Shown: positions 25,278 to 25,378 of the stretch, piece by piece
How the letters are laid out: the number at the start of each line of letters is the position of its first letter
How positions within the stretch are numbered: the stretch's first letter is position 1
Source of the DNA: Escherichia coli
Lineage (GTDB): Bacteria; Pseudomonadota; Gammaproteobacteria; Enterobacterales; Enterobacteriaceae
NCBI RefSeq assembly: GCF_024502345.1
Contig: NZ_JALDNN010000001.1
Length of the DNA: 64,000 nucleotides
Reading direction: 5' to 3' (one strand)
Position numbers and translations under genes: made by a program
The notes under the pieces: generated by a model
What the model saw: the letters and a program-made list of their open reading frames with translations, nothing else
Told to the model about the DNA's origin: nothing
The model's database searches: none

Positions 25278-25319
25278 TACTGCTCCTGAACGGTTTACAG
25301 GAGTAAGTGTAGACGGCGA

Positions 25320-25356
25320 TAAGAAAAAAACCGCCAGCGTTTCCACTAGCGGTTTT
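25320..25356 (-). terminator. putative rho-independent terminator downstream of ybfA
   Basis: On the minus strand: hairpin ACCGCTAG / CTGGCGGT (8 bp including one G-U pair) followed by a T7 run. Confidence 0.55.
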
Positions 25357-25378
25357 CAATGTATTCAAAACTCAGCAA

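Follow-up and report, generated by a model that had tools for sequence, protein, structure and literature searches.

The analysed window, a stretch of 64,000 nucleotides from Escherichia coli, carries the genes ybfA and ybgA next to each other on its minus strand. ybfA (25379-25585, 68 aa) forms the upstream flank of the site described here and ybgA (24768-25277, 169 aa) its downstream flank. The latter is the first gene of ybgA-phr, and the gene that follows it is a photolyase as judged by Pfam. Both genes were taken from the ORF list, bear the names given by RefSeq in matching genomes and are intact and full length, in the same orientation and with the expected Pfam domains (PF10725 DUF2517, E 3e-34, for ybfA and PF08349 DUF1722, E 5e-35, for ybgA). 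Their DNA aligns with that of K-12 at 98.4% (ybfA) and 97.9% (ybgA) identity. The first-pass annotation, made from the sequence alone, had placed the two genes about 100 bp apart; the ORF list and the sequence give exactly 101 bp, at 25278-25378 (minus strand), and this spacer is the unoccupied RhsC site of the strain.

Read from ybfA to ybgA, the spacer contains a predicted intrinsic terminator (25326-25357, minus strand), located by terminator scan, RNA folding and spacer alignment, whose structure starts 21 nt after the ybfA stop codon. On the sense strand of ybfA it forms a stem of 14 pairs, 6 of them G-C, closed by a GAAA loop and followed by a T/U-run at 25330-25324 (7 T in total), the first five T of which are able to pair with the upstream A-run/G at the stem base. 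This is the layout of an intrinsic terminator, a G+C-rich stem-loop and then a U-run just past a stop codon, and the hairpin already reported in the first-pass annotation is thus confirmed. For the spacer RNA the predicted folding energy is -31.7 kcal/mol (z = -3.5), a value reached by none of 200 shuffled sequences. Two C-to-T changes, at 25345 and 25348 in the 5' arm, distinguish the window from K-12 and from the other Escherichia alleles aligned. In the ybfA-sense RNA they replace G-C by G.U pairs, and the stem stays paired on this strand alone; in a transcript of the other strand, A.C mismatches would result. Such changes would fit a constraint acting on the RNA hairpin. From the predicted fold, hairpin and U-run should end ybfA transcription in vivo.

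Directly after the terminator lie nine bases, TCTTATCGC in the ybfA-to-ybgA sense (25316-25324, minus strand), which have no counterpart in the K-12-type occupied allele, as shown by blastn boundaries, the sequence itself and alignments. They are followed by a conserved box, GTCTACACTTAC (25303-25314, minus strand), recognised in the alignments directly 3' of the insertion point and 25-36 nt upstream of the ybgA start. RNA folding further predicts a small hairpin, CUCCUG N9 CAGGAG (25283-25303, minus strand), whose 3' arm contains the ybgA Shine-Dalgarno sequence; in the alignment it is kept in Escherichia sequences and not in Citrobacter ones. The core of the box, T[C/T]TACACTTA, is common to Escherichia, Citrobacter, Enterobacter and Trabulsiella and is present in all occupied alleles. 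Searched for as a recurring regulator site, the GTCTACACTTAC box occurred a single time within the 64-kb window. A sigma-70 consensus scan detected no promoter in the spacer and one promoter-like site inside ybgA, ahead of phr; in the empty allele, no good match is found at the -35 position relative to the box. A search of the searchable literature for a mapped ybgA-phr promoter returned nothing relevant. The box may be part of a ybgA-phr promoter or transcription start region, or a -10 element. In an Rfam scan no known RNA family matched the spacer, and the matches in the window were seven tRNAs, sroC and the REP-derived naRNA4 and ES036.

In K-12 MG1655, the end of ybfA (729340) and the start of ybgA (739001) are separated by 9,660 bp, which contain rhsC, ybfB, ybfO', ybfC, ybfQ, ybfL' and ybfD. 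The first-pass annotation had placed an RhsC element of roughly 9-10 kb (rhsC with ybf ORFs and H-repeats) at this place, and the K-12 interval is indeed longer by 9.57 kb. A compact junction in K-12, which that annotation had named as evidence against its own reading, was looked for and is not what the alignment shows: 9,568 bp of K-12 (L001, 1896-11463) stand against 9 bp of the window (25316-25324). On the left, flank homology to K-12 ends after GGCGGTTTTTT, at window position 25325, and on the right it resumes at CGTCTACAC, at window position 25315. Both flanks are 98% identical to K-12, one as far as the terminator T-run and the other from the CGTCTACAC box onward, and the window as a whole otherwise follows K-12 689046-764269 colinearly. 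In strains with an occupied site, the Rhs element, whose conserved right end reads AACTTCACAAAT..., thus sits exactly between T-run and box, with about 9 nt replaced. No direct repeats flanking the K-12 element were found at its boundaries, and around the window junction the search for direct or inverted repeats that could represent a target duplication or an excision scar gave only the terminator arms and short repeats at chance level. The empty site therefore lets the ends of the RhsC element be defined to the base.

We then looked for Rhs sequence in the whole window. With K-12 RhsC as tblastn query, the best match in the 64 kb had an E value of 1.3, and YbfB, YbfO, YbfC, YbfQ, YbfL and YbfD gave nothing better than E 0.03. 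The K-12 element DNA had no blastn match in the window at E <= 1, and none of the six frames of the 64 kb contained a YD-repeat or PxxxxDPxGL motif. The statement of the first-pass annotation that no Rhs core lies elsewhere in the window is borne out by these searches. Of the constituents of an Rhs element of the RhsC type (clade I), the window has neither a large rhs ORF with a YD-repeat core, nor tip/immunity ORFs, nor H-repeat (ISAs1-family) ORFs; the ybfA-ybgA site itself is present, colinear with K-12 on both sides. The junction bears no element residue, its only non-K-12 bases being the 9 nt that match other empty alleles. At the ybfA-ybgA locus, the strain would accordingly carry no Rhs toxin, immunity gene or orphan tip.

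Colinearity with K-12 is interrupted at other places of the window. At 33661-33673, between the kdpE stop codon and the REP next to pgm, a 5.7-kb K-12 segment (715363-721057, with ybfP, ybfG', ybfI', potE, speF and speFL) is missing, and REP and pgm terminator come directly after kdpE. Among 5,426 complete E. coli genomes, 350 have such a direct kdpE-pgm junction, fewer than have the empty RhsC site. Enterobacter sp. JUb54 and the non-coli Escherichia lineage SCPM-O-B-8794 show this adjacency too; at this locus the strain would be without the inducible ornithine decarboxylase and the putrescine antiporter. At 59994/59995, K-12 homology stops at 689046, the edge of IS5D (687851-689045). Past 59995 the window continues with non-IS sequence, including sroC (60998-61160), so that the K-12 copy of IS5D is absent here. 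The window also carries a cluster of seven tRNAs with internal repeats (51906-52607, plus strand), corresponding to metT-leuW-glnU-glnW-metU-glnV-glnX of K-12, and REP/BIME-type repeats at 1345-1415, 5789-5859, 23248-23290, 49537-49579, 33672-33788 and 41096-41214, which match naRNA4 and ES036 in Rfam and cross-match one another by blastn.

The frequency of the different site states was determined in 5,426 complete E. coli genomes. An uninterrupted junction, counted when a 201-bp junction query was recovered as a single blast piece, is present in 1,308 of them (24%). The K-12-type left junction, from ybfA to rhs, was found in 3,692 genomes (68%) and the K-12-type right junction, from the H-repeat to ybgA, in 3,096 of the 5,426. 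Empty alleles are themselves diverse: 1,148 genomes match a 1,301-bp query at 90-95% identity and 1,291 match the 201-bp junction query at 80-90%. The empty-site rows sampled in these low-identity bands (about 1,150-1,290 genomes) include ST131-type strains. As the bands are this large and include such strains, spacers resembling that of the window apparently make up a minority of the 1,308. No genome identical to the window was found among those compared. The closest, FDAARGOS_943, FDAARGOS_944 and the O18ac:H14 strain 873.10 (99.4-99.6%), are all three empty at the site, and the 201-bp junction of FDAARGOS_943 is 100% identical to that of the window.

Variation at this locus has been described before, as the first-pass annotation had stated. 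It corresponds to "position 5", from kdpA to phr, which varies among strains (Jackson et al. 2009, PMC2935791), and b0699-b0706 is listed as a presence/absence region in the E. coli W genome paper (PMC3032704). Jackson et al. distinguish 11 Rhs positions and describe a group of pathogenic strains in which Rhs is wholly absent. An empty versus occupied RhsC site is therefore a common, previously documented strain polymorphism, and the window is not new in kind.

A third state, found in 171 of the 5,426 genomes (3%), is represented by a 1.64-kb islet of strain CB8671 (L004, 16733-18372), at the equivalent of window ~25316-25330. An rhs gene is absent from the islet, whose DNA is not similar to the K-12 element. 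Three small ORFs are present: one belongs to the CdiI_3 immunity family (E 4e-17), one gives a weak SUKH-1/SMI1_KNR4 match and one is unknown. The terminator T-run is found at both ends of the islet. It also contains an element of ~84 bp that occurs in several copies in nearly every E. coli genome.

To place these states in a wider context, species-representative genomes were scanned with YbgA, and KdpA, YbfA, YbgA, Phr, RhsC and YbfD were mapped on the loci found. The order kdpA-ybfA-ybgA-phr with a compact spacer is shared by five Citrobacter species, Enterobacter sp. JUb54 and Trabulsiella, and a looser adjacency of these genes is seen in Dickeya, Erwinia, Pragia and Budvicia. In Citrobacter, Enterobacter and Trabulsiella the spacer consists of terminator, T-run, 8-10 nt, a GTCTACACTTA box, Shine-Dalgarno sequence and ybgA, so that the spacers of species in which the element was never present are colinear with that of the window. 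By the compact layout common to these three genera, the empty form is ancestral in type. Within Escherichia, the non-coli lineages E69 and SCPM-O-B-8794 (~90-93% identical to the window) are empty, with the 100-nt architecture. In E1V33, MOD1-EC7003, E. albertii and E. whittamii, the site is occupied or coincides with a contig break, and homology is lost exactly at window 25315, which is also the right boundary in K-12 and is thus common to four non-coli Escherichia lineages; at the left ends of these non-coli occupied alleles, the draft contigs used break inside the element.

In E. coli the Rhs element has two variants of its right end, the K-12 type and an E. albertii-like type. That of strain 88-3493 (L030) is nearly identical to the right end in E. 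albertii NBRC 107761 (L008), and the boundary is CGTCTACAC in both variants. Judging from these shared boundaries, the RhsC-site insertion is old and was probably a single event. A complete rhs gene at position 5 in E. albertii was noted by Jackson et al. 2009 (PMC2935791), who argued that rhs at this position is older than E. coli and that strains without it have lost it. An old insertion agrees with the age they assign to it; on the sequences compared here, the empty architecture is nevertheless the older state.

Taken together, these results make it very probable that the spacer is an unoccupied Escherichia Rhs site which descends, at the level of the locus, from the pre-insertion sequence and is not the product of a deletion. 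It is an ordinary intergenic region, in which a rho-independent terminator should end ybfA transcription and ybgA-phr is preceded by the short conserved box and its Shine-Dalgarno sequence, and we infer that this allele was never occupied. The nine bases align with 8-9 nt of ST131, Ecol_881, EC17CM2, AHM8C212RI, E69 and SCPM-O-B-8794, the other empty alleles compared having a similar T-rich stretch of 8-9 nt that ends in CGC/CGG at the equivalent of 25316-25324, and they are missing from both occupied variants, K-12-type and 88-3493-type. Since occupied alleles do not contain them and no repeats flank the element, simple excision would not recreate the spacer. A clean deletion in situ, in which an RhsC-type element of a recent ancestor was excised or deleted to leave the spacer, would account for the resemblance of the flanks to K-12 (98%), which extends to the 20 nt past the ybfA stop, and loss is what Jackson et al. 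2009 (PMC2935791) favour for rhs-less strains. The data argue against it: the junction shows no scar and no rhs, tip or H-rpt fragment, the K-12 element has no direct repeats around it that could mediate precise excision, and the nine bases would have to be regenerated in a form that aligns with other empty alleles. TATC is common to the window sequence CTTATCGC and to GTATCAGG, the 8 nt with which the K-12 insert begins; only 4 of 8 positions match, and homology here, if real, would shift the insertion 9 nt to the right and make a precise deletion conceivable. On balance we regard deletion in situ as very improbable. An error of the source assembly, in which a repeated Rhs element was collapsed or skipped, is brought to mind by the multi-copy Rhs cores, which break draft assemblies, and by four draft Escherichia contigs that end just upstream of ybgA. 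A collapse would however leave Rhs sequence or a contig end, and the spacer is colinear base for base with those of 1,308 finished genomes and of other genera, and 100% identical over 201 bp to FDAARGOS_943, so that an artefact can be practically discounted.

More difficult to separate from descent of an unoccupied site is the history of the lineage itself. Homologous recombination with an empty-site donor, through the ybfA/kdp and ybgA/phr flanks, could have removed an earlier Rhs element; the locus would still be ancestral in type, while the history of the genome would include a period of occupancy. The occupied allele is old and widespread (68% of E. coli), with the same right boundary in four non-coli lineages, and closely similar flanks surround an occupied site in some genomes (88-3493) and an empty one in others (AHM8C212RI). 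In both of these strains the adjoining 25 kb match the window at 98.5-98.9% identity, and the identities of the two flanks to the window are 98.2%/99.3% for 88-3493, 97.7%/97.8% for K-12, also occupied, and 97.7%/98.0% for the empty AHM8C212RI. Occupied and empty genomes being equally close, the flank haplotype does not tell an allele that was never occupied from one that was lost. In addition, a variable segment of 20 nt after the ybfA stop, K-12-like in the window, exists in two haplotypes unlinked to occupancy; together with the mixed occupancy at similar flanks, this points to a mosaic, recombining region. On the other hand, no recombination breakpoints were identified, and since TCTTATCGC differs from the ST131, EC17CM2 and Ecol_881 cores no donor can be named. 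Replacement by recombination is compatible with descent from the pre-insertion sequence at the locus level, differing from it only in lineage history; we consider it possible, though rather unlikely.

Both the empty allele and the Rhs-occupied one, whose right boundary is identical everywhere, are found in E. coli as well as in several other Escherichia lineages, and an unrelated islet of immunity genes shares their insertion point to the nucleotide. This might reflect a trans-species presence/absence polymorphism of long standing, possibly under frequency-dependent selection on toxin and immunity, or an insertion hot spot at the ybfA T-run reused by different polymorphic-toxin cargo; we offer either idea tentatively and think it rather unlikely. 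For the strain itself, one classical Rhs polymorphic-toxin locus is vacant, which bears on its competitive repertoire, and one large repeat fewer is available for chromosomal rearrangement. The DNA upstream of the box is entirely different in empty and occupied strains, so that regulation of ybgA-phr may differ between them. The locus also provides a natural insertion polymorphism in which the pre-insertion sequence survives. What is added here to the known polymorphism is the precise position of the K-12 element ends on the empty site, the frequencies of the site states, the ancestral-type architecture, the third state and the presence of both alleles across Escherichia species.

Compared with known systems, the site occupies the same chromosomal position as the K-12 RhsC element, between the same flanking genes. 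It differs from K-12 in being without rhsC, ybfB, ybfO', ybfC and the H-repeat ORFs ybfQ/L/D, and in having 9 nt that K-12 does not have. The CB8671 islet resembles the Rhs element in its position, being inserted after the T-run of the ybfA terminator and before the CGTCTACAC box, but places orphan immunity genes at a site where the window has none. Among empty alleles, ST131-type spacers match the 201-bp junction query of the window at only ~87% identity, and the 20 nt that follow their ybfA stop are of another type; the 9-nt core of the window is a variant that differs from the other empty alleles aligned, including ST131, EC17CM2 and Ecol_881. Beyond these differences, the other empty E. 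coli (ST131, Ecol_881, EC17CM2, AHM8C212RI and FDAARGOS_943) share the 100-101 bp architecture of the window, and the non-coli lineages E69 and SCPM-O-B-8794 have the same succession of terminator, T-run, 8-9 nt, conserved box and Shine-Dalgarno hairpin.
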